From an uncultured archaeon (lineage in GTDB: Archaea > Iainarchaeota > Iainarchaeia > Iainarchaeales > VGJJ01), in the NCBI GenBank assembly GCA_964357115.1, contig CAYHJZ010000001.1:1-27988 (forward strand): a stretch of 27,988 nucleotides of DNA, in the 5' to 3' direction. Shown here one piece after another: positions 1-27,988 of this stretch (position 1 is the stretch's first letter; every line of letters begins with the position of its first letter). The notes under the pieces were generated by a model that saw nothing but the letters and a program-made list of their open reading frames with translations, made no database searches and was not told the DNA's origin. The translations under genes were made by a program, and so were the position numbers.

Positions 1-1638
1 AAAGACATTAACACGGCCTCAGGGGCACGAGACTTGAATCAAACCGCTTTTTGGAACGCGCGATGGGATGGAAACGCGGTCGCCACTACGGATCAACTCG
101 GAAACACCGTCAATAGCGGCCTGGGTGTGCAGCTCGTGAATGTGGATAACAACGCCTACGCGAACGATTTATTGCTCACCGCGTCCCTCGCTAATTATGG
201 TGCGCGCGCGGATGCCGGGATTATTTATTTGATCAAGGACATTCATTCCGTTTCAGGAATTCGGGCTTTCACTACCGTGGGGACCTATCATGCCGCGTGG
301 GTGGGTGGAAATTCGTGGGCGCTGGGACAAACCAATGGATCCGGGTTGGGAGTACAACTCTTCGATGTGAATGGGGACGGGTACACGAACGACTTGTTCA
401 TTACGGCGTACAACGCGGACGTGAACAATCGTGCGGACAGCGGAATGGTAGTCTACGTGGCGGACATTAACTCTATTATCGGAATGCAAGACCTCAACAC
501 GGCCGACACTTCGGTATATCACACGCGTTGGAATGGGGGAGCGAACACGGATCGTGCGGGATCGACTAACACTACTAATACTATTGGGGGAACTTTTTCT
601 CCTAGAGTGCAAGTCGTTAATCTTGATGGAAACCTGGGAAGGAATGATGTGTTCATTCCCGTGGCACTCGCCGACTTCAACGCGGGTGCCAACCGGGGAG
701 CGTTGTACGTGATTAAAGACGTCAACACGATTCGTGGAACGTTCGACTTGAACGCGCCCGCGAGCTACTCGATCGCCTGGTACGGGGGTGCCGCCAACGA
801 TGACTTGACGCAGAACAATCATCAAGATCCCTCCGTGCAGCTGGTGAATATCGACAACAATGCCCTTCCCAACGATATTTTGATTTCGGCCGTTCTGGCG
901 GATGTAAATGGAAAAACCAACTCCGGAGCCGTGTACCTCATCAAGGATGTGAGTCACCTCGCGAATGGACGATATTACTTGGGACACAACTCTCATTATT
1001 CAGTGCGATGGAACGGCGGAGCGGGAGAACAGTTGGGAGACACCAACAACAGTCGCCAAGGAGTTCAGCTCGTGAATTTGGATAATAATGCGTGGGCGAA
1101 TGATTTGTTGATTACTGCGTCCTCAGCGGATGCCAACGGGAGAATAGATAACGGGGCCATTTACTTCCTTCGTGATGTTCACGCGAGAAGCGGGCCGATT
1201 GACTTGAACAGTGTTGCGGCTGGATTGTATAATGCCAAACTCAATGGCACGGTCACGCGTGGATTTTTGGGAGATACCAACCGTTCCGGCTTGGGTGTTC
1301 AGCTGGTGAATGTGGATAATAATGCGTGGGCCAACGATTTGCTCATCGTTCAGCCCAAGCTCGACTCAAACATCTCCCGAAGCGGGAGCGTATTTTTGCT
1401 GCGAGACATTCACGACTATTCTCGGGGTAATGATCTAAACTCAGACATTCTTTCTCCCAGCATCTGGAAAGGCGCCACTCTCGCGGATGCGATTGGAGAC
1501 TCGAATAGTTCAGGAATAAGCGTTCAACTCATTGATGTCGACAGCAACGCGTACACGAACGATATCTCCATCGTGGGTGTGTCGGTGGACGCGAACGGAA
1601 TCACGAACAACGGAGCGGTGTATCTTCTCAAGGATATT
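1..1638 (+). repeat. Intragenic coding repeats (7 FG-GAP-like units visible)
   Basis: Recurring GVQLVN(V/L/I)DNNA(Y/W)ANDLL; near-identical DNA such as gttcagct(c/g)gtgaat(t/g)tggataataatgcgtgggc at ~1063 and ~1298. Confidence 0.85.
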
Positions 1639-2136
1639 GCGGCGGAAGAAAGTATCGGAGTTGATGATTACTCCTTCACGCTACTCTTCCCTTTGTCCGG
1701 TTGCACTGTTGGAAAAGGAAATCTTAGCGGTGGAAATAATTGTCAACGAATATACTTCGAAGCCACCGAACTCTCTGGGGCAACCGATCAAAACAAAGTC
1801 AATCCCGAAGGACAAAGTGAGGGCGTGCCCTTTCTCCTGTACGATAACCAAAGCACCAGCAGTTCCGATATTAACATTTTACTCGACTTGAACGAATCCC
1901 TCCCTGCGACGCACGTGGTCAAAGTATCGGTTTCCTACTCCGGGTGGTACGGAACGTGTAGCGGAAACACCGATGGAAATTGTCTCACCCTTGGAACTAC
2001 GGCTGCTAATGCGGGAAAAGCTTTCTACTCTGCGGGAACGCAGGATTTGAATTTATTCATCTGGACGGACTTCGTTAATGGATCCATTAGTGAAATCGAT
2101 CGAAATTTAGACAGCAACAGCATCTCATCCACGTGA
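1..2136 (+). CDS. FG-GAP/integrin-alpha-like beta-propeller repeat surface protein with C-terminal Cys-containing domain (5'-truncated by window edge)
   Basis: Frame is open from base 1 (KDINTASGARDLNQ... continues the repeat), so the TTG at 34 is not the true start. Seven ~75-85 aa repeats with consensus LG..N.SGxGVQLVNxDNNAxxNDLLIxAxxADxNG..xxGAVYLxKDI. Confidence 0.8.
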   Translation, partial: KDINTASGARDLNQTAFWNARWDGNAVATTDQLGNTVNSGLGVQLVNVDNNAYANDLLLTASLANYGARADAGIIYLIKDIHSVSGIRAFTTVGTYHAAWVGGNSWALGQTNGSGLGVQLFDVNGDGYTNDLFITAYNADVNNRADSGMVVYVADINSIIGMQDLNTADTSVYHTRWNGGANTDRAGSTNTTNTIGGTFSPRVQVVNLDGNLGRNDVFIPVALADFNAGANRGALYVIKDVNTIRGTFDLNAPASYSIAWYGGAANDDLTQNNHQDPSVQLVNIDNNALPNDILISAVLADVNGKTNSGAVYLIKDVSHLANGRYYLGHNSHYSVRWNGGAGEQLGDTNNSRQGVQLVNLDNNAWANDLLITASSADANGRIDNGAIYFLRDVHARSGPIDLNSVAAGLYNAKLNGTVTRGFLGDTNRSGLGVQLVNVDNNAWANDLLIVQPKLDSNISRSGSVFLLRDIHDYSRGNDLNSDILSPSIWKGATLADAIGDSNSSGISVQLIDVDSNAYTNDISIVGVSVDANGITNNGAVYLLKDIAAEESIGVDDYSFTLLFPLSGCTVGKGNLSGGNNCQRIYFEATELSGATDQNKVNPEGQSEGVPFLLYDNQSTSSSDINILLDLNESLPATHVVKVSVSYSGWYGTCSGNTDGNCLTLGTTAANAGKAFYSAGTQDLNLFIWTDFVNGSISEIDRNLDSNSISST

Positions 2137-2145
2137 GGAAAAAAA

Positions 2146-2943
2146 ATGCGCTCCCGTTCAACCCAAAAACCTTTCAAAAATCCGACACGAATGGCTCTTC
2201 TTCCTATGGCTGTCGTTATCGCCATAGTCGCGATTGTCGGAATTTTTATTCACTATTACTCCGACGAGTCCGATTCCCTCCGCGGGTGCGTTTCGCTGTC
2301 GAGAGAATCCTACACGTTTCCTCTTTCCGTTTTCTCAACATTGCCTGAACCTCCTCCCTGTTTCCAAACGGTAGTAGAGCAATATCATTCCGGTCAATTT
2401 CACGACGCGTATTTTTTTTCTGAAGAATTTTTCCTCCAACCGGAGTTCTATCCCGGATTTCGTGAAAGCGGAATGGCGCACTGGGCTACTCCCCTCGACA
2501 CGCACTATGGGGCTATTGGATACGGAGCATATCCTCATTCTCAAACCAAAATAGTCACGCCAGGAATGGAAGAAAAAATACGATTATTTTTTCACTCTGG
2601 ATTTGGCGTACGCACGACTCAAGGGGCTGCCCTGCGGTGGGTATTCGAAAACCCCGCGGATGAAGCATTCGTGAATATCACGTTAGACTCCGAAAGCTAT
2701 GGGGGATTCTGGATAGGACCCACGTACCCCGTTTTTGACGCGAGGTGGGTGAAGCCCGTGGACATTCGAGTTTCTCTCTCCCCCGATGCACCGTCACGGG
2801 ACATCACGTTTGAAATCGTCGTGGTCGCTCCACCGAACGAACTCCGAGAAGAATGGATCAATGCCTGGGGAAGCGCTTACTATGACGCCACCACGTACGT
2901 TGGAGAAAAAAAAATCGCACGCGTCACCCTCACTCCCGAATAA
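2146..2943 (+). CDS. Membrane-anchored uncharacterised protein (family B, paralog of 3768..4745)
   Basis: N-terminal TM helix (ALLPMAVVIAIVAIVGIFIHYY). QPEFYPGF, GYGxYP and SGFGVxTxQG motifs are shared with 3768..4745. Confidence 0.85.
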   Translation: MRSRSTQKPFKNPTRMALLPMAVVIAIVAIVGIFIHYYSDESDSLRGCVSLSRESYTFPLSVFSTLPEPPPCFQTVVEQYHSGQFHDAYFFSEEFFLQPEFYPGFRESGMAHWATPLDTHYGAIGYGAYPHSQTKIVTPGMEEKIRLFFHSGFGVRTTQGAALRWVFENPADEAFVNITLDSESYGGFWIGPTYPVFDARWVKPVDIRVSLSPDAPSRDITFEIVVVAPPNELREEWINAWGSAYYDATTYVGEKKIARVTLTPE

Positions 2944-3020
2944 ATTCTTTGTTGACGTGCACTTGTTTTCGTTTCATTTCTACCCAGTTGATTTGTCTTC
3001 CCGCAAGCGAAAGAAGCAGA

Positions 3021-3028
3021 TTTATATA
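3021..3028 (+). promoter_or_regulatory. Archaeal TATA box (TTTATATA) with purine-rich BRE upstream
   Basis: gaaagaagcagaTTTATATAgt about 30 nt upstream of the ATG at 3059. Confidence 0.6.
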
Positions 3029-3058
3029 GTGGGATTTGGTTTGCCTTGAAGGAAGTGG

Positions 3059-3706
3059 ATGATGATGCGTAGTTTTGATCGATGCTTTTTTGCACTTGTT
3101 TTGGTTTTTATGATTCTTTTACCCGCGTACGTTGCGGCCGCGACAACAAATGCGACGACGATGACGTGGATTATTCCCGCCAACAAGAGCCACACCATTT
3201 CCTACGGGGGAGCGTGCTCCTCCTCTGCGTTCTATTTTGTTGAGACCAACGGAGAAGACGCGGACGGGGACGGGAATTCCGCTCGAATTCTACCGTACGA
3301 CGCCTCGACTGCTGGATCGGCATGCCAAGCTGCGGGAGTTGCGGGAATGACCGTGACTAACAATGGAAACACGAGTTTCAACCTCGATGCGAATTTCCAA
3401 ACCGGACTATCGGGAAATGATCAAAACGTCGGGATCAAAATTTGGATGGGTACAGGCGCCGGTTGCGGAACATCGGGTCTGGGCGGATGGCAATTAAACT
3501 GCGGAATCCAATCGACGTCCACTCCGGTCACTTCCTCTTCATGTAGGGATTTTAACGTGACTAACTTTACTACTCCAGCACGACTCGTCAGCAGTCTCGG
3601 GGTCAATGATACCAACCAATTGTGCTTTTCGGGAGAAATAAACGGAAAGGACACTCGTGTGGGAGCGGGGACCATTGCGCGGAGCTTTGACACGAACTCT
3701 TCCTAG
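3059..3706 (+). CDS. Secreted Cys-containing beta-rich protein (family A; putative fimbrial-type subunit)
   Basis: Sec signal peptide (FFALVLVFMILLPAYVAA|ATT), several Cys, Gly/Ser/Thr/Asn-rich. Resembles the C-terminal domain of 1..2136. Confidence 0.8.
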   Translation: MMMRSFDRCFFALVLVFMILLPAYVAAATTNATTMTWIIPANKSHTISYGGACSSSAFYFVETNGEDADGDGNSARILPYDASTAGSACQAAGVAGMTVTNNGNTSFNLDANFQTGLSGNDQNVGIKIWMGTGAGCGTSGLGGWQLNCGIQSTSTPVTSSSCRDFNVTNFTTPARLVSSLGVNDTNQLCFSGEINGKDTRVGAGTIARSFDTNSS

Positions 3707-3729
3707 TTTCTTAGCGGAATGAGGAAGCG

Positions 3730-3737
3730 TTTTATAT
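3730..3737 (+). promoter_or_regulatory. Archaeal TATA box (TTTTATAT)
   Basis: gaggaagcgTTTTATATcg about 30 nt upstream of the ATG at 3768. Confidence 0.55.
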
Positions 3738-3767
3738 CGCGATGAGATATTATCTCAAGGTTCAATT

Positions 3768-4745
3768 ATGAAAAAACAACTCCCTAGCAAAAAAACCAAC
3801 TTTGCTTCCACCGCTCGATCGTGGATTATTCCTGTAGCCGGATTACTGGTTCTCGTGGTCGCGCTCGGTGTCGTTTTTCAAAACGGAATAAACCCCACGG
3901 GTTTGGTCATCGCGAGTCGCGCGGATAACGCTTCTCTATCCAATGAGAGTATTCCTCCCGGCGGAAGCGCAGCGGATGGAAAAGTCACTCCTTCCCAATT
4001 CTTGAGTCGACAACAATACTTTGAAGAAGCCTTCCGAATCGACCGAGAATCGTACGCCATTTTTGAAAAAGCAGCAGACTTCAGTGGACGACTCCTGGAT
4101 CAAATGCCTGCGTATTTTTCTTTGGGAGATGAGGAACAAATATGGAGTCAACTCCCTCCTGTTCCCAATGACTTTAGTGAAATCGCATTCTTGTTGGCAA
4201 CCGGAAAATTCTTTGCTATTCAAGATTTAGATGAACGATACATGAAGCAACCCGAGTTCTATCCTGGGTTCAAAGACACGGGACTGCGATTCTGGACTCA
4301 ACCGGATGCAACGTCATGGGCATCCAATGGATACGGAACCTATCCCTCTGAACAATGGGCAGATCTTACATTGGGAGAAACCGATACGTTTGAAGCCACC
4401 GTGTTCATTTACTCGGGCTTCGGAGTTCAAACTTATCAAGGACTCTCGCTCTTCGTCGACGCCGCCTCTCAATCATTTTTTGATGTAAGTGTGTCCCCCG
4501 ACACGTTTGTCTTAGAACCCACTTTTCCTCAATTTCATCCCGAGTGGGCCAAAAAAATTTTGGTTACTGGAAAAATTAAACCTGAAACGCCTGCGGGAGA
4601 GTACACTATTACCGTTAACGTGGGCATTCCTCCCGAAAGTAAACGCCAAGAGTGGGGCACGGAGTATCGAAACCTATACGCGGATGCCGCCTCGGGTGTT
4701 CGACCGAGTGGGAATCCCATCACCCTTCATGTTACCGTGAAATAG
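3768..4745 (+). CDS. Membrane-anchored uncharacterised protein (family B, paralog of 2146..2943)
   Basis: N-terminal TM (IIPVAGLLVLVVALGVVF). KQPEFYPGF, NGYGTYP, YSGFGVQTYQG motifs; C-terminal Ig-like PAGEYTITVNV segment. Confidence 0.85.
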   Translation: MKKQLPSKKTNFASTARSWIIPVAGLLVLVVALGVVFQNGINPTGLVIASRADNASLSNESIPPGGSAADGKVTPSQFLSRQQYFEEAFRIDRESYAIFEKAADFSGRLLDQMPAYFSLGDEEQIWSQLPPVPNDFSEIAFLLATGKFFAIQDLDERYMKQPEFYPGFKDTGLRFWTQPDATSWASNGYGTYPSEQWADLTLGETDTFEATVFIYSGFGVQTYQGLSLFVDAASQSFFDVSVSPDTFVLEPTFPQFHPEWAKKILVTGKIKPETPAGEYTITVNVGIPPESKRQEWGTEYRNLYADAASGVRPSGNPITLHVTVK

Positions 4746-4807
4746 GTTTCCGCCTTCGTGGAGCATGGTGCTAAAGCCTATAAAAAGGCGAACTTTTTCT
4801 TTTGGCA

Positions 4808-6853
4808 ATGCGGCTCGCCCTATTTTTTGGATTTTCCATTCTTCTTTTAGCCGGGCTTTCTCCTCTTGTCGTTGGAGCCACCACGAGCGCATTTACGTGG
4901 GGAGTGGTGGGCGATTATTATCTCGATGCTCAACTCTACGCGGAACGTTGTCCTGCTGCTCTAGGAATGTACGATTTGAATGCGGTTGTTTACCAACGAC
5001 CCTCGAACACGCCCAGTACTACTTCCACGGTGACCGGAACTATCTATCGTCCCCTCGGCGGAACGGATGCGGTTACGTTTACGAATAATGGAGATGGAAA
5101 TTACGTGAAAGTCTACGACTTCAATCAGTCGGGAACCTACAAGATTGTCTTGAATGCCTCGGATGTAAATTTTGCTTCGGCGGATGTGAATGAGTATGTC
5201 TACATTGGAGATGTTGATTTTCAAATATCATTCCTGAACAACTCCTTTGAGGTGGCCGCAGGAAATACGGGGACGATACAAAATCTCGTGAAAAATAGTG
5301 ACAACAATGCTATTACAGGAATCACGGGAAGTATTGACATCAATTATCCCAGCGGAACCGTTTTTACCAATGATGGAAACATTTCCGAAACGGGGAATGG
5401 ACAATACTATTACACCTTCACTGCTCCCTCGGTTGCCGGAGTGTACACGGCGGCGAGTTCTTTTACGTGTGGAACCAACACCGACGTGAACATGGGGGGA
5501 CGATTCACCGTCACGGTTACATCGAGTGGGGGAGGAACCTCGGAGGATGATTCGGTTAGTGAAAATGTAGGATTCAGCGGTGGCGGGGGCGGTGGGGGCG
5601 CTGCGGCGACCAAACCGTATGCCTCCATTGTGCAAGAGTGGGGGTTCTCCGATCCCATTGAAGTAGGAACCTCCAATCGTATTTTTGCAGTCATCAAAAA
5701 TACGGGGACACTCGGAACACGCTTCTTGGTCAAAGCCACGATCTCCAGTGCACAAAAAAATGAGTACTTTGACACCTTTCTCACCGATTTCATTCCGTCC
5801 AAAGGGAGTACCTCCATCACGTTTGACGAGCCTTACACCACGTACACTTCGGGGAACCACTTGATCAACATTCAACTCTTCAAGCCGGACGGGAGTGAGA
5901 AAATAGGGGAATTCGCCCAATCATTTGACGTGGGGGGAATTTTGCGCTACGATGTGGTGGCCACATGCTTGGAGCCTAACACTATTCCGGGAAAAGATGT
6001 TTCGGCTCTCATTAATCTGATTAATCTCGGAGACTACTTTCAAGACATGCAATTTGAGTGGTGGGTCGAAGGAAAGAATGGGGAAAAAGTGGGTGCCGGG
6101 ACCTTCCCTATCGCGCTATACAATCAAGAATCTCGTTCCCTGGTTCGAAGCGTGCATATTCCTGAAGGCTTTCCTGCAGGAGAGTACCAGTTTCGCGCCC
6201 AACTATCTTACGAAACAACACTCATTGAGGGAGCGTGCTCCTTTAATGTGAAAATAACCAAAGAGTATTACGAAGATGAGTTATCTTATTTTCAAACCGT
6301 TCTCAAGGAACTTGAAAAAATAGCCGAAACCAAGAGGGCTAAACTATCTCCTGAAACATTTGAAAGAATATCCGAAATTAAAATACTTCAAGGGCTGCTC
6401 GAGAATGCCATTCGTAATGAAAATTATCCCGAAGCGGAAAGAACACTCTCGAGCATTCGAGAAATTACCAACGAACTCACGCGAAAAATCATTAAAGAAG
6501 AATCCCCTGGGCTGCTGGATAGTATTGAATGGAGCCAAGCCGTCGTCTCGGTGGCTTCTATGAGTCTTGTCGCCCTCGCGTTTATCCTGGCTCGACCTGC
6601 GGGTGCTGTTGTTGTGGCAGCCGGGTCTCCGGTGGAGTACGATCACTTCCTCCCCGACGAACCTATTATTTCCAAAACAATTCCTCCTGGAAAAGTATCT
6701 CTTGCGAAAGGAAAAATTACCAAGGTGACAGCGCCCCAACAAAAACAAAACGAACCGCGACATTTAATAGGAAAAAAAACGCCCATGATGCAAACCTATC
6801 CTCACGAATCCTTGATGAATCGGTTTTTAGGACTCAAAGGAAGGAAGGAATGA
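4808..6853 (+). CDS. Large surface protein: signal peptide, Ig-like/CARDB-like domains, Gly linker, helical stalk, C-terminal TM
   Basis: ATG at 4808 (MRLALFFGFSILLLAGLSPLVVG|ATT). Ig-like motifs (GNGQYYYTFTAP..AGVY; NTGTLG; INLINLGD; PAGEYQFRAQLSY), SG7 linker, Glu/Lys-rich helix, TM near aa 580-605. Confidence 0.85.
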   Translation: MRLALFFGFSILLLAGLSPLVVGATTSAFTWGVVGDYYLDAQLYAERCPAALGMYDLNAVVYQRPSNTPSTTSTVTGTIYRPLGGTDAVTFTNNGDGNYVKVYDFNQSGTYKIVLNASDVNFASADVNEYVYIGDVDFQISFLNNSFEVAAGNTGTIQNLVKNSDNNAITGITGSIDINYPSGTVFTNDGNISETGNGQYYYTFTAPSVAGVYTAASSFTCGTNTDVNMGGRFTVTVTSSGGGTSEDDSVSENVGFSGGGGGGGAAATKPYASIVQEWGFSDPIEVGTSNRIFAVIKNTGTLGTRFLVKATISSAQKNEYFDTFLTDFIPSKGSTSITFDEPYTTYTSGNHLINIQLFKPDGSEKIGEFAQSFDVGGILRYDVVATCLEPNTIPGKDVSALINLINLGDYFQDMQFEWWVEGKNGEKVGAGTFPIALYNQESRSLVRSVHIPEGFPAGEYQFRAQLSYETTLIEGACSFNVKITKEYYEDELSYFQTVLKELEKIAETKRAKLSPETFERISEIKILQGLLENAIRNENYPEAERTLSSIREITNELTRKIIKEESPGLLDSIEWSQAVVSVASMSLVALAFILARPAGAVVVAAGSPVEYDHFLPDEPIISKTIPPGKVSLAKGKITKVTAPQQKQNEPRHLIGKKTPMMQTYPHESLMNRFLGLKGRKE

Positions 6854-23060: not shown

Positions 23061-23567
23061 CTACGCGTAACGTAGGGCAATCACACACGCGGTTTGGGAA
23101 TCGGGAACGTCACACTCGCCCACCCATGAGGAGTCGACGCCGTTGTCTTCCAAATCTTCCGCTAATTCAATTCCGGTGTCGCACAGCACGGAGATTCTCA
23201 CACGAAGATTAGAAGATCCGTTGTAGCGAATAATGTTATCACTAATTTTCGAGAAGTCGTTTCCGCCATCGTCGAAGTCACCTAAGGATAGGCATACTTG
23301 TCCGCGCGTAATCACTTGAGAAGCGGACGCAATGGCTTCGGCGTTCAAGGAGTCTTCTCGCGCAAACGTCACCGTGTTACTCGTGCGGAGCTCGCTGGGT
23401 GCGCTTACTTGGCTTCCGACCAAATCGGAGGCGACTTTGTTGGGTTTCTGCCCGCCCAAATTGGGGAGGCTGCCAATAATGTTAAGCAACAACACTAAGA
23501 TTGCCAACGCCACAACGGCCGCAATCAATAATTGAAACGTGGAAAATGCTTGTCCATTGAAATTCAT
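23061..23567 (-). CDS. Class III signal peptide pilin-like protein
   Basis: MNFNGQ|AFSTFQLLIAAVVALAILVLLL; four Cys in the globular part. Confidence 0.85.
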   Translation of the reverse strand: MNFNGQAFSTFQLLIAAVVALAILVLLLNIIGSLPNLGGQKPNKVASDLVGSQVSAPSELRTSNTVTFAREDSLNAEAIASASQVITRGQVCLSLGDFDDGGNDFSKISDNIIRYNGSSNLRVRISVLCDTGIELAEDLEDNGVDSSWVGECDVPDSQTACVIALRYA

Positions 23568-25858: not shown

Positions 25859-26362
25859 CTAAATCGTCCCCGCGACGAGTTTTCCAAAGGAGATTAGACA
25901 ATACTCCGAACACGTGTCGGGGGCATTCGTGGAAAGAAAATTCGTGGTTTGGCACTGCATGTACACGTTTCCCACCGTCGTGGAGGTGACGATCACGAAT
26001 GGATTATCGGGGTCGTCGTCATTCAGAGTAAACCCTGCCGAGGTTTCCGCATCCAGGGAAATGCACGCCTCATCTAACCCTGCGCGTTGAGCGAATTGGC
26101 GCTGGCCGAAGCGCGAGTCTTTTGTAAAATACAACTCTTTCGCCAACACGACTCTCCCATTCGGCGCGTCGGCGGCGCTCTTCCACGAAGAGTAAATCGT
26201 GTCTAAACTCACTTTTTCACGCAGTTTGTCAAAGTACGAAATAGCCGAGACGATAATCACGAGAATGGCAAGGGAGATTACCATTGCGATGAGGACGCGG
26301 TAGGCTTCGAACGCTTGGCCTTTTTGATTCATTCGGGGAAATTTTCTCATCATCTTCACCAT
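25859..26362 (-). CDS. Class III signal peptide pilin-like protein
   Basis: QKGQ|AFEAYRVLIAMVISLAILVIIV; four Cys; resembles 23061..23567. Exact start uncertain. Confidence 0.85.
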   Translation of the reverse strand: MVKMMRKFPRMNQKGQAFEAYRVLIAMVISLAILVIIVSAISYFDKLREKVSLDTIYSSWKSAADAPNGRVVLAKELYFTKDSRFGQRQFAQRAGLDEACISLDAETSAGFTLNDDDPDNPFVIVTSTTVGNVYMQCQTTNFLSTNAPDTCSEYCLISFGKLVAGTI

Positions 26363-26438: not shown

Positions 26439-27988
26439 TCACCCAAAGTTTCCTGCAATGAGCGAATTGGAAATAATCACGGTAGCGACGAATAAAATAA
26501 TGGCAATCGGCAAACTCTTCGCGGCATTCTGCTTCGCCGTAATCGTGTTGTTCTCCTCAATCAGCGTAACGAAGTAGTTCATGACAATGACGAGTTCAAT
26601 TACGTAAATGGCTACAATCAACAAGAATTCTCCCGGCGTGGCGAGCGTGCTAATCACATCGGCTTTGATGAACGAACCCACATCCCCGCCCCCAAAGCTT
26701 CCTACGCCCGGCAAACTACCCAAATTAGGGTCAGCAGTCTGGTTTCCCGCACTCGAAGAGCTGACGCTGACCAGCGTGACGATGACAATGCGCTGCAAGC
26801 TCGTCGTAATGCCTAAAACAATCGGTGCAATGTACACGGAAACCGTCTTCATGGTGCCGGTGATTTCCTTAATCAGGATCGTGAGCATCTTACTCACGCG
26901 CTCGGCGTTTCCAATTTGTCTCGACAACGAAATGAGCGTGCGCGCCGCAACCCCGACACCTAACTTTACGGAATCGATGACAATTTTCATGGAGCTGTTA
27001 ATAATTTGCGAAGGATTGTTGCGCAAGCTCCCGTACGCAGGATCAAACACCGCGGTTTCGAGTGGCATGCCGAGCACGGAAATATTATCCACCGTCTTGC
27101 CAAACACTTCCTGCGAAACAATGTTGTTGGGTAAAAATTCTTGGACGTGACGCAGGGCATCTTCAATCGGCTTGTTCTCTCCTAAACGAGAGGCGAGCAC
27201 GTACAAGCTGTCCTTGAATTCAGATTCCATCTGCATGTATTTCTGCTGAATCTTTCGCTTCTCCTTGTAGGATAAATCAATAAACGTCGAAAACGCAAGA
27301 CTCAAAGAAATGAGCATGCCAAAAACAAAATTGTAGGGAGTGACATCGTTGTCGGCTTGGGCAAAAAACTGGGTGCGCTCATTGGCTACGAGCACCGTCG
27401 CCTCTTCGAGCGACAACCCTTGAGAAATCAGCTGGGTCTCCCGCGTCCCATTGGGTTCAAACCAATCTAAGGGCTTGCGATCCGCTTCCAATACACCCTC
27501 GAGCGTCTTGTCGGGGGCAATCAAATAAAACGATCCCGGCGCATCCGGCTCGCCTAAACCTAATCCTGCGAAGTGCAAATAGGTACTCGCGAGTCCTCCC
27601 ACAATCACAATTCCCGCCACCACGACCCAAATACTCATGTAGCCCTTGCCGGAACGCATCATATTCTTGGGAGGTAATCCCGGAAAACCATCCGGAATGT
27701 CAGGAGGCGTGTACGTGGGCGGGCGTGACTGAACGAGTTTTCGCCCAAACCAAATCACCATGAGGGGGAGCAGGATATCATACACGAGGAACAACACCCA
27801 CGTCTGCGCGAGAGGGGAGCCGGAGAACGCGCTCCCGACGGGGAGAATAATAATGAGAATCAGGGGGAGCAGCACTCCCACGTAGAAGAGCGTGTGGCTC
27901 GGTTGCGAGAGGTCGCGCGCGTAGTGTGCCATCTTTCCCTGAACGGACTCTAAAACTTCATCCATCGTCTTGTCGAGGAGCTGGTAGC
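26439..27988 (-). CDS. TadC/type II secretion F-like pilus platform membrane protein (5'-truncated by window edge)
   Basis: Frame is open to the window end (YQLLDKTMDEVL...). Multi-TM with MESEFKDSLYVLASRLGENKPIEDAL and ...IAPIVLGI T2SSF-like helices; lies upstream of pilins. Confidence 0.8.
   Translation of the reverse strand, partial: YQLLDKTMDEVLESVQGKMAHYARDLSQPSHTLFYVGVLLPLILIIILPVGSAFSGSPLAQTWVLFLVYDILLPLMVIWFGRKLVQSRPPTYTPPDIPDGFPGLPPKNMMRSGKGYMSIWVVVAGIVIVGGLASTYLHFAGLGLGEPDAPGSFYLIAPDKTLEGVLEADRKPLDWFEPNGTRETQLISQGLSLEEATVLVANERTQFFAQADNDVTPYNFVFGMLISLSLAFSTFIDLSYKEKRKIQQKYMQMESEFKDSLYVLASRLGENKPIEDALRHVQEFLPNNIVSQEVFGKTVDNISVLGMPLETAVFDPAYGSLRNNPSQIINSSMKIVIDSVKLGVGVAARTLISLSRQIGNAERVSKMLTILIKEITGTMKTVSVYIAPIVLGITTSLQRIVIVTLVSVSSSSAGNQTADPNLGSLPGVGSFGGGDVGSFIKADVISTLATPGEFLLIVAIYVIELVIVMNYFVTLIEENNTITAKQNAAKSLPIAIILFVATVIISNSLIAGNFG

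Follow-up and report, generated by a model that had tools for sequence, protein, structure and literature searches.

The stretch analysed here, called the window below, consists of the 27,988 nucleotides of contig C1 (CAYHJZ010000001.1) of an uncultured archaeon of the Iainarchaeota, whose 0.9-Mb genome is divided over 123 contigs and is 92.7% complete. Positions 1–6853 contain five open reading frames, all on the forward strand and separated by successive gaps of 9, 115, 61 and 56 bp. Gene 1 (1–2136), which is open at the 5' end of the contig, encodes a candidate tip adhesin. It is followed by gene 2 (2146–2943), encoding B-short, a protein of 265 residues proposed to be a tip-specific chaperone or adaptor, and by gene 3 (3059–3706), encoding protein A, a shaft-subunit candidate of 215 residues. 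Gene 4 (3768–4745) encodes B-long, a 325-residue protein proposed to be the membrane-tethered chaperone of A, and gene 5 (starting at 4802 or 4808 and ending at 6853) encodes protein C, a 683-residue candidate for a membrane anchor or terminator. The original prediction, made from the letters of the window, had seen in these five co-oriented surface genes a possible attachment structure; all five are confirmed as closely spaced forward-strand reading frames, and they are conserved in relatives. Pfam and NCBIfam scans of the five proteins, and of the product of the next gene downstream (P0006, described at the end), gave no family-level assignment, the matches returned being spurious or below threshold, as with Tir_receptor_M, which was matched by the repeat region. 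Scanning the DNA for tandem repeats revealed nothing relevant.

The product of gene 1 is built from two parts. Residues 1 to about 550 contain seven FG-GAP-like repeats of about 75 residues each, which would form a propeller; as the reading frame is open at its 5' end, the full number is at least seven. The nearest named clusters in the ESM Atlas, among those listed, are all FG-GAP, while Pfam alone reaches FG-GAP_2 at a sub-threshold E = 0.05. The C-terminal part (residues 555–711, nucleotides 1663–2133), here called A2d, is a cysteine-containing domain of about 157 residues. It is 46–66% identical to the C-termini of open frames of 600–2783 residues, which occur in 40 of the phylum's 215 scanned genomes. 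Tip proteins of this kind have no membrane anchor of their own, and gene 1 lacks the putative donor-strand motif of protein A.

Protein A starts with a class I signal peptide (residues 1–27), followed by a conserved mature N-terminal strand (residues 28–41, approximately) and a beta-rich core of about 175 residues. In the family alignment, six cysteines and a DxDxDGN loop of the core are invariant, and many N-glycosylation sequons are present. The family comprises 76 clusters among 1.84 billion representative proteins. The first 14 or so residues of the mature protein (3140–3181, forward strand) follow the pattern TT-x-T-W-x-[VI]-P, with Thr33, Trp37 and Pro40 invariant or nearly so; we propose that this segment is a donor strand. 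In the AlphaFold2 monomer (predicted local distance difference test score, pLDDT, 82.8), residues 26–44 lie outside any strand and have a pLDDT of about 64–71, the lowest confidence of the core. The best Foldseek match of this model is the AbpA bundling pilus (7ueg_A, E = 0.027, probability 0.82), with a cannula subunit (9h8b, E = 0.064) and a Sulfolobus thread (7pnb, E = 0.11) also found. Donor-strand pilins dominate the list: AbpA, type I of enterotoxigenic Escherichia coli, SafA, CfaB, Csu, cannulae, FimF/A/G, CupE and the thread. Weak as they are, these matches point in the direction of the pilin-type domain that had been predicted for A. Profile and single-sequence searches of the PDB sequences returned nothing meaningful and no pilin; WxL, PapD, fimbrial and TasA Pfam families were matched by none of the members of the A and B alignments at E ≤ 10, and the ESM Atlas yielded unnamed clusters only for A.

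The presence of one and the same domain in genes 1 and 3, also part of that prediction, escapes BLASTP, the C-terminus of gene 1 matching A without significance (E = 0.21). It is borne out at the profile level. The profiles of A (28 proteins) and A2d (33 domains) align collinearly over their full lengths (hhalign E = 1.5e-3), and 11 distant representatives of the A family match both hidden Markov models (HMMs), one of them with E-values of 7e-27 for A and 7e-9 for A2d. A joint superfamily alignment has common landmarks from the first core strand through to the C-terminal strand. The stand-alone subunit found 5' of B in Micrarchaeota is of the A2d type (locus L011). By profiles and bridging sequences, A and A2d are homologous.

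B-short and B-long are paralogues (32% identity over 193 residues, E = 3e-32), both with an N-terminal signal-anchor helix. B-short is a type II membrane-anchored protein, with a transmembrane helix at about residues 19–39 and the conserved extracellular B domain behind it. For B-long, the AlphaFold2 model (pLDDT 84) has a transmembrane helix (residues 20–38), a disordered linker (40–69), a helical subdomain (about 81–177) and a beta-sandwich (about 189–324). Foldseek returned 65 PDB matches for this model at E ≤ 1e-3. Among the top 50, 31 belong to a PapD-like group, made up of 15 Caf1M/FaeE/DraB pilus chaperones, 12 MSP/VAP domains and four ASH-type domains of HYDIN/CEP192. Caf1M, FaeE and DraB are matched with E-values from 1e-5 to 4e-4, chaperones and MSP domains both being found at E of about 1e-5 with a probability of 1.0. 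Judged by its model, the sandwich of B is thus a PapD/MSP-type immunoglobulin (Ig) domain tethered outside the membrane. At E ≤ 10, PapD_N/PapD_C, PF06030 (DUF916) and PF11797 (DUF3324) are each matched by none of 34 B-family members; the ESM Atlas places B near generic Ig-like families, with scores at chance level. A function as a sortase-like or other enzyme was considered for B and rejected, because B-long contains no cysteine, no invariant set of residues of catalytic type is conspicuous, and no enzyme family is matched. Membership of a known enzyme family had been named beforehand as one outcome that would speak against the proposed pilus; Pfam and NCBIfam gave no enzyme match, and the sandwich is of the PapD/MSP type.

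Protein C combines a signal peptide, an A-like N-terminal strand, Ig-like domains (with weak Pfam Ig matches), a glycine-rich linker, a coiled coil, a transmembrane helix (residues 579–600, nucleotides 6536–6601, all approximate) and a cytoplasmic tail. At 20 loci or more, a member of its family is kept 3' of B-long. Directly past the signal peptide, the C proteins of 21 loci contain a motif of the kind seen in A; in the window the proposed donor strand of C (4880–4915, forward strand) includes the residues TSAFTWGVV. When scored with a position-specific scoring matrix (PSSM) derived from A, the median of the C strands reaches the 99th percentile when set against 988 control reading frames of this genome; the strand of the window ranks sixth. 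One relative (L049) has a poly-glycine tether directly after the motif of C, and there the motif cannot serve a neighbouring domain as a cis strand.

The aromatic residue of the strand co-varies between the two proteins, being tryptophan in A and C of the Iainarchaeota and phenylalanine in both proteins of the Micrarchaeota and Aenigmarchaeota. In the latter two phyla, A and C often have an identical mature N-terminal prefix. For 19 Micrarchaeota-type loci, the similarity of the A and C strands (mean BLOSUM62 over 11 residues, from 11-mers transcribed by hand and loci that are related, not independent) is 21.2 for the true pairs versus 11.8 ± 1.5 for shuffled pairs, and none of 20,000 shuffles reached 21.2. 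The third-best match of the genome to the A-strand PSSM, STARSWIIP, is located in the cytoplasmic, membrane-proximal part of B-long (residues 14–22, 3807–3833); it is probably a coincidence, as it is not conserved among B homologues. A paralogous C on contig C33 (3330–5600) has a run of unknown bases (X) inside its poly-glycine linker, a low-complexity assembly gap.

In tip proteins the alignment with A does not begin before the first core strand, and their own mature N-termini are without the motif. For this reason, a general secretion or processing signal was rejected as an explanation of the motif. The parts are divided such that the tip has an acceptor-type core only, A has a strand and a core, and C has a strand only, together with a membrane anchor. 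Read from the sequences, this division corresponds to the trichotomy typical of donor-strand fibres. It also agrees with the anchor foreseen in the original prediction, since C carries the N-terminal strand of A and co-varies with it, while the tip contains an acceptor-type domain without a strand.

A different role for these proteins would be that of an envelope. A might be an abundant matrix protein (S-layer-like or of a biofilm), possibly calcium-dependent, with B as its attachment or export factor, the A2d proteins as embedded adhesins and no strand exchange at all. The invariant DxDxDGN loop, the six cysteines and the many N-glycosylation sequons of A suit such a protein, the window has no recognized S-layer gene, and archaeal matrix proteins that depend on calcium are known (10.64898/2026.01.04.697558). 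However, a matrix explains neither the co-varying A strand in C, which is sometimes placed on a flexible tether, nor the strandless tips, and the DxDxDGN loop is missing from Micrarchaeota-type subunits in which the gene order is nevertheless retained. We consider an envelope role improbable.

The same units are found four times in the genome, in which the B genes and the A-superfamily genes, five of each, are always paired; two of the pairs are in the window. Contig C33 contains A, B and C in this order, contig C72 a payload-strand-A gene followed by B, and contig C116 an FG-GAP–A2d gene followed by a disrupted B. The gene on C72 (1858–3768, L005/L007) encodes a paralogue of 606–637 residues with a different N-terminal payload, a donor-strand-like motif and a full A domain, and has its own B 3' of it. 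On C116 (502–1330, L004), the B gene 3' of this second FG-GAP–A2d tip gene is broken by a TAG stop or a change of frame; it is a pseudogene, unless the assembly is wrong here.

Of the 215 genomes scanned for the phylum, 43 contain B, 41 contain A and 40 contain A2d, essentially the same genomes each time. All three are present together in about 40 genomes, among them all 17 of the family to which the window belongs, and about 170 contain none. Maps of about 23 regions show two units, conserved in about 20 mapped loci, one of payload–A2d followed by B-short and one of A, B-long and C, which are arranged either co-directionally, as in the window, or divergently. A short B is located 3' of the A2d-bearing gene at every complete locus, and in the mapped loci B-long always stands between A and C. 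At one locus (L053/L082; genome G179, contig C12, 39594–41505), two tandem B-long genes occupy this position. Relatives of the same genus (L058, genome G180, contig C1, 158900–163600; L059; L102, genome G191, contig C8) have three to four A paralogues in tandem, of about 410–420 residues, with a single B 3' of each array. These paralogues contain a domain of about 200 residues inserted past core residue 80 or so, and could serve as adhesive shaft subunits of a variable kind.

When 185,579 species genomes were scanned by pattern, B was located solely in metagenome-assembled genomes of DPANN archaea, named Candidatus Diapherotrites/Iainarchaeum, Micrarchaeota and Aenigmarchaeota, apart from two oddly labelled contigs. 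These are JAFCCG010000026.1 (L078), labelled 'Chloroflexi bacterium', and JAGVNS010000141.1 (L107), labelled 'Thaumarchaeota archaeon'. The former matches contig C82 of genome G068, which the genome collection assigns to the same order as the window; in both cases the contig has probably been mis-binned or mislabelled, and not transferred. Across DPANN, an A or A2d domain detectable by HMM lies directly 5' of B for 43 of 62 B genes, and about ten more can be recognized by eye. Gene by gene, A/A2d and B form pairs, and their co-occurrence is strict, so the check on conservation of the neighbourhood across DPANN, proposed with the original prediction, comes out positive in the phylum scan, in the locus maps and among the 62 B genes. 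The A/A2d domain, B and C are three unannotated families in a conserved order.

All these families being unannotated, and the individual fold scores of A not being significant, one could suppose that the genes encode independent surface proteins which are clustered only, and that the resemblances of motif and fold arise by chance or from composition. Such a supposition is strongly disfavoured by the near-perfect co-occurrence, by the order and adjacency conserved across three DPANN phyla, and by the co-variation of the strands within loci. We regard it as very improbable indeed.

We favour the interpretation that the locus codes for a donor-strand fibre which is assembled with the help of chaperones and without an usher, and which has its anchor in the one membrane of the archaeal cell; we would give it a probability of roughly 60%. 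What we infer here is an open groove, the exchange of strands, polymerisation, the action of B as a chaperone, and adhesion. All parts would be exported by Sec. The A-type domain would then be an acceptor fold with an open groove, to be bound and capped by its cognate B, held at the membrane by the N-terminal helix; B-short would serve the tip protein and B-long protein A. As a binding partner of A, B is a candidate on account of its modelled PapD/MSP-type sandwich and its pairing with every acceptor-domain gene. The tip adhesin, composed of a variable payload and A2d and lacking a donor strand, would begin the fibre. Subunits of A would join from below, and the N-terminal strand of each newcomer at the base (TT-x-T-W/F-x-V/I-P) would enter the groove of the previous subunit and displace B. 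Growth would be stopped by C, which has a strand but no acceptor domain, and whose Ig-like and coiled-coil stalk and transmembrane helix would tie the fibre to the cell. C is without a B of its own, in keeping with the groove-capping role proposed for B. At the other end, the FG-GAP propeller, or the other payloads of relatives, would bind a partner cell or a surface.

The pairing of genes is open to another interpretation, in which the products form a stoichiometric surface-display complex and not a polymer. B would in that case be a permanent membrane receptor that keeps secreted A-domain cargo at the cell surface, comparable to cohesin and dockerin. Through beta-augmentation, the strand would unite a single copy each of tip, A and C in a short, membrane-anchored spike. 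A strict one-to-one pairing of A-type genes with B, with B-short and B-long classes that track the type of partner, is what a receptor would lead one to expect; the tip proteins have no anchor of their own, the long linker of B would suit a standing tether, and polymerisation of A is inferred. On the other hand, A possesses both a strand and an acceptor-type core, making self-polymerisation possible in principle, and relatives have three to four tandem A paralogues per single B (L058, L059 and L102). The fold matches of B favour chaperones, and a second permanent anchor would be redundant, because C already provides one. A display complex appears to us unlikely, though it is the alternative to be taken most seriously.

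Several observations weigh against a chaperone-assisted fibre. The fold matches of A are weak, with E-values of 0.03–0.1 at the top of the list and TM-scores of 0.33–0.44. Those of B-long are promiscuous, since the matches outside the PapD-like group are to other Ig-like domains, including those of subtilase, sialidase and GH123. B combines a single Ig sandwich with a helical domain, as opposed to the two-domain boomerang of PapD. Each A-type gene has its own B, whereas classical systems use one chaperone for all subunits; this would suit a stable partner just as well. Beta-like residues occupy the position of the strand in some tip proteins, so a cis strand is possible there. Archaeal threads, Tafi/bundling pili and cannulae are assembled by strand donation and are described as chaperone-free (PMC9715654, PMC12337348). 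Finally, the sequencing runs that bear the locus are groundwater metagenomes (n = 4); all four are DNA runs and none is an RNA run.

A close architectural parallel may be drawn with the Pam pili of bacteria of the candidate phyla radiation (CPR), which are usher-less, have membrane-anchored chaperones and form filaments that were solved by electron cryo-microscopy (bioRxiv 10.64898/2026.03.03.709456, PMC13278184). Their parts are the pilins PamA/B/E, the tip PamT, the PapD-like membrane chaperones PamC and PamD, and the anchor PamR with an N-terminal strand and a transmembrane helix (PMC13278184). As at our locus, there is no usher, each operon has two membrane-anchored chaperone-like proteins, and the terminator, like C, combines an N-terminal strand with a transmembrane helix. 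The pilin donor strand and truncated Ig-like acceptor of Pam correspond to the candidate strand and core of A, and the paralogue on C72 has the Pam-like order of payload, strand and acceptor. The hosts are alike in being single-membrane, ultra-small episymbionts. The differences are that Pam is bacterial while our locus is archaeal and known from its genes alone, that B is anchored by an N-terminal signal-anchor whereas the Pam chaperones are anchored by a C-terminal helix, and that B has one Ig and one helical domain where the Pam chaperones have two Ig domains, a comparison made from the published architecture.

Similar relations exist with the Elr/WxL pili of Bacillota, which consist of the WxL pilins ElrD/ElrC, the tip ElrA, the base ElrB and the chaperone ElrE (DUF916/DUF3324); this system has been reported from Bacillota only (10.64898/2026.10.17.759780). 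There, too, the tip combines a variable payload with an invariant C-terminal acceptor module (WxL in ElrA) that lacks a donor strand, the pilin has an amphipathic N-terminal strand of about 15 residues ending in a bulky aromatic residue, and the base subunit (ElrB, corresponding to C) bears a strand without any acceptor domain. Likewise, the chaperone is membrane-tethered and has Foldseek matches to Caf1M-type chaperones. In contrast, the transmembrane helix is N-terminal in B and C-terminal in ElrE, B has no DUF916/DUF3324 match, each type of acceptor gene has its own B where Elr has one ElrE per operon, and instead of sortase and LPxTG, which are absent here, the anchor is a transmembrane stalk protein. 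None of 28 A-family members matches WxL (PF13731) at E ≤ 10, and the sole link between A and WxL, an Atlas feature score of 0.81, is at chance level.

With classical chaperone-usher pili (chaperones PapD/FimC/Caf1M, ushers FimD/PapC), the locus would have in common the logic of tip first and base last and a two-part tip adhesin (FimH/PapG). The B sandwich matches Caf1M, FaeE and DraB, and A matches SafA, CfaB, CsuA/B, FimA/F/G and CupE at the level of the fold. It differs in having no outer membrane, no PapD_N or fimbrial Pfam match and a membrane-anchored B with one Ig domain. Neither the window nor any of the mapped loci contains an usher-like gene, and the host is archaeal (GatD is among its archaeal genes). 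The filaments of other archaea (Saci_0406 threads, AbpA, TafA/E and CanA) resemble the proposed fibre in being archaeal, Sec- or Tat-exported and composed of beta-sandwich subunits with an N-terminal strand (in A, a candidate), and in their glycosylation sequons and possible calcium sites. They differ from it in that here a chaperone-like gene lies 3' of every acceptor-domain gene, in that the distribution here is confined to DPANN lineages, and in that a profile search gave no sequence match to their PDB entries.

The locus would work like the chaperone-usher, WxL and Pam systems (the last compared by description only), but it does not belong to the chaperone-usher or WxL pili, whose defining features at the level of sequence are not found. 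Our literature search found no description of an archaeal counterpart of chaperone-type donor-strand systems, including for DPANN. The original prediction had called the system undescribed. For archaea and for these protein families this holds; it does not hold for the architectural logic, which was published in 2026 for monoderm bacteria (PMC13278184, 10.64898/2026.10.17.759780).

Little is known of the means by which DPANN archaea hold on to their hosts, and the locus is a candidate for such an attachment structure. It supplies a parts list, namely a tip with exchangeable payload, a shaft subunit, partner-specific candidates for tethered chaperones and a strand-bearing membrane anchor. On a wider proposition our judgement is evenly balanced: that Iainarchaeota, Micrarchaeota and Aenigmarchaeota build adhesive fibres by chaperone-guided strand exchange at a single membrane, from families without detectable sequence relationship to bacterial pilus parts, and hold their hosts by means of swappable tip payloads. 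Such fibres would be the first chaperone-dependent strand-exchange pili in Archaea and the third independent usher-less system after Pam and Elr. If the interpretation is right, this would be the first archaeal donor-strand filament to be linked to a chaperone. Single-membrane cells of both domains would then share usher-less chaperone-guided strand exchange as a general solution, notably CPR bacteria and DPANN archaea, the two symbiotic radiations of ultra-small cells, and three new protein families (A/A2d, B and C) would be available for annotation.

Four base pairs past C, the window continues with P0006 (6858–7574), which encodes a polytopic membrane protein of 238 residues. A counterpart exists in the nearest relative only (56% identity), and none at the other loci; P0006 was rejected as a sixth component because its conservation is limited to this relative. 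The five genes had also been predicted to be without class III (type IV pilin) signal peptides, and A and C do have class I signals. In the window, class III signal peptides are confined to its far end, at 23061–23567 and 25859–26362, both on the reverse strand. The two genes encode small proteins in which GQAF precedes a hydrophobic stretch. They adjoin a gene for a large polytopic membrane protein (26439–27986, reverse strand), an arrangement consistent with a separate type IV pilus locus.

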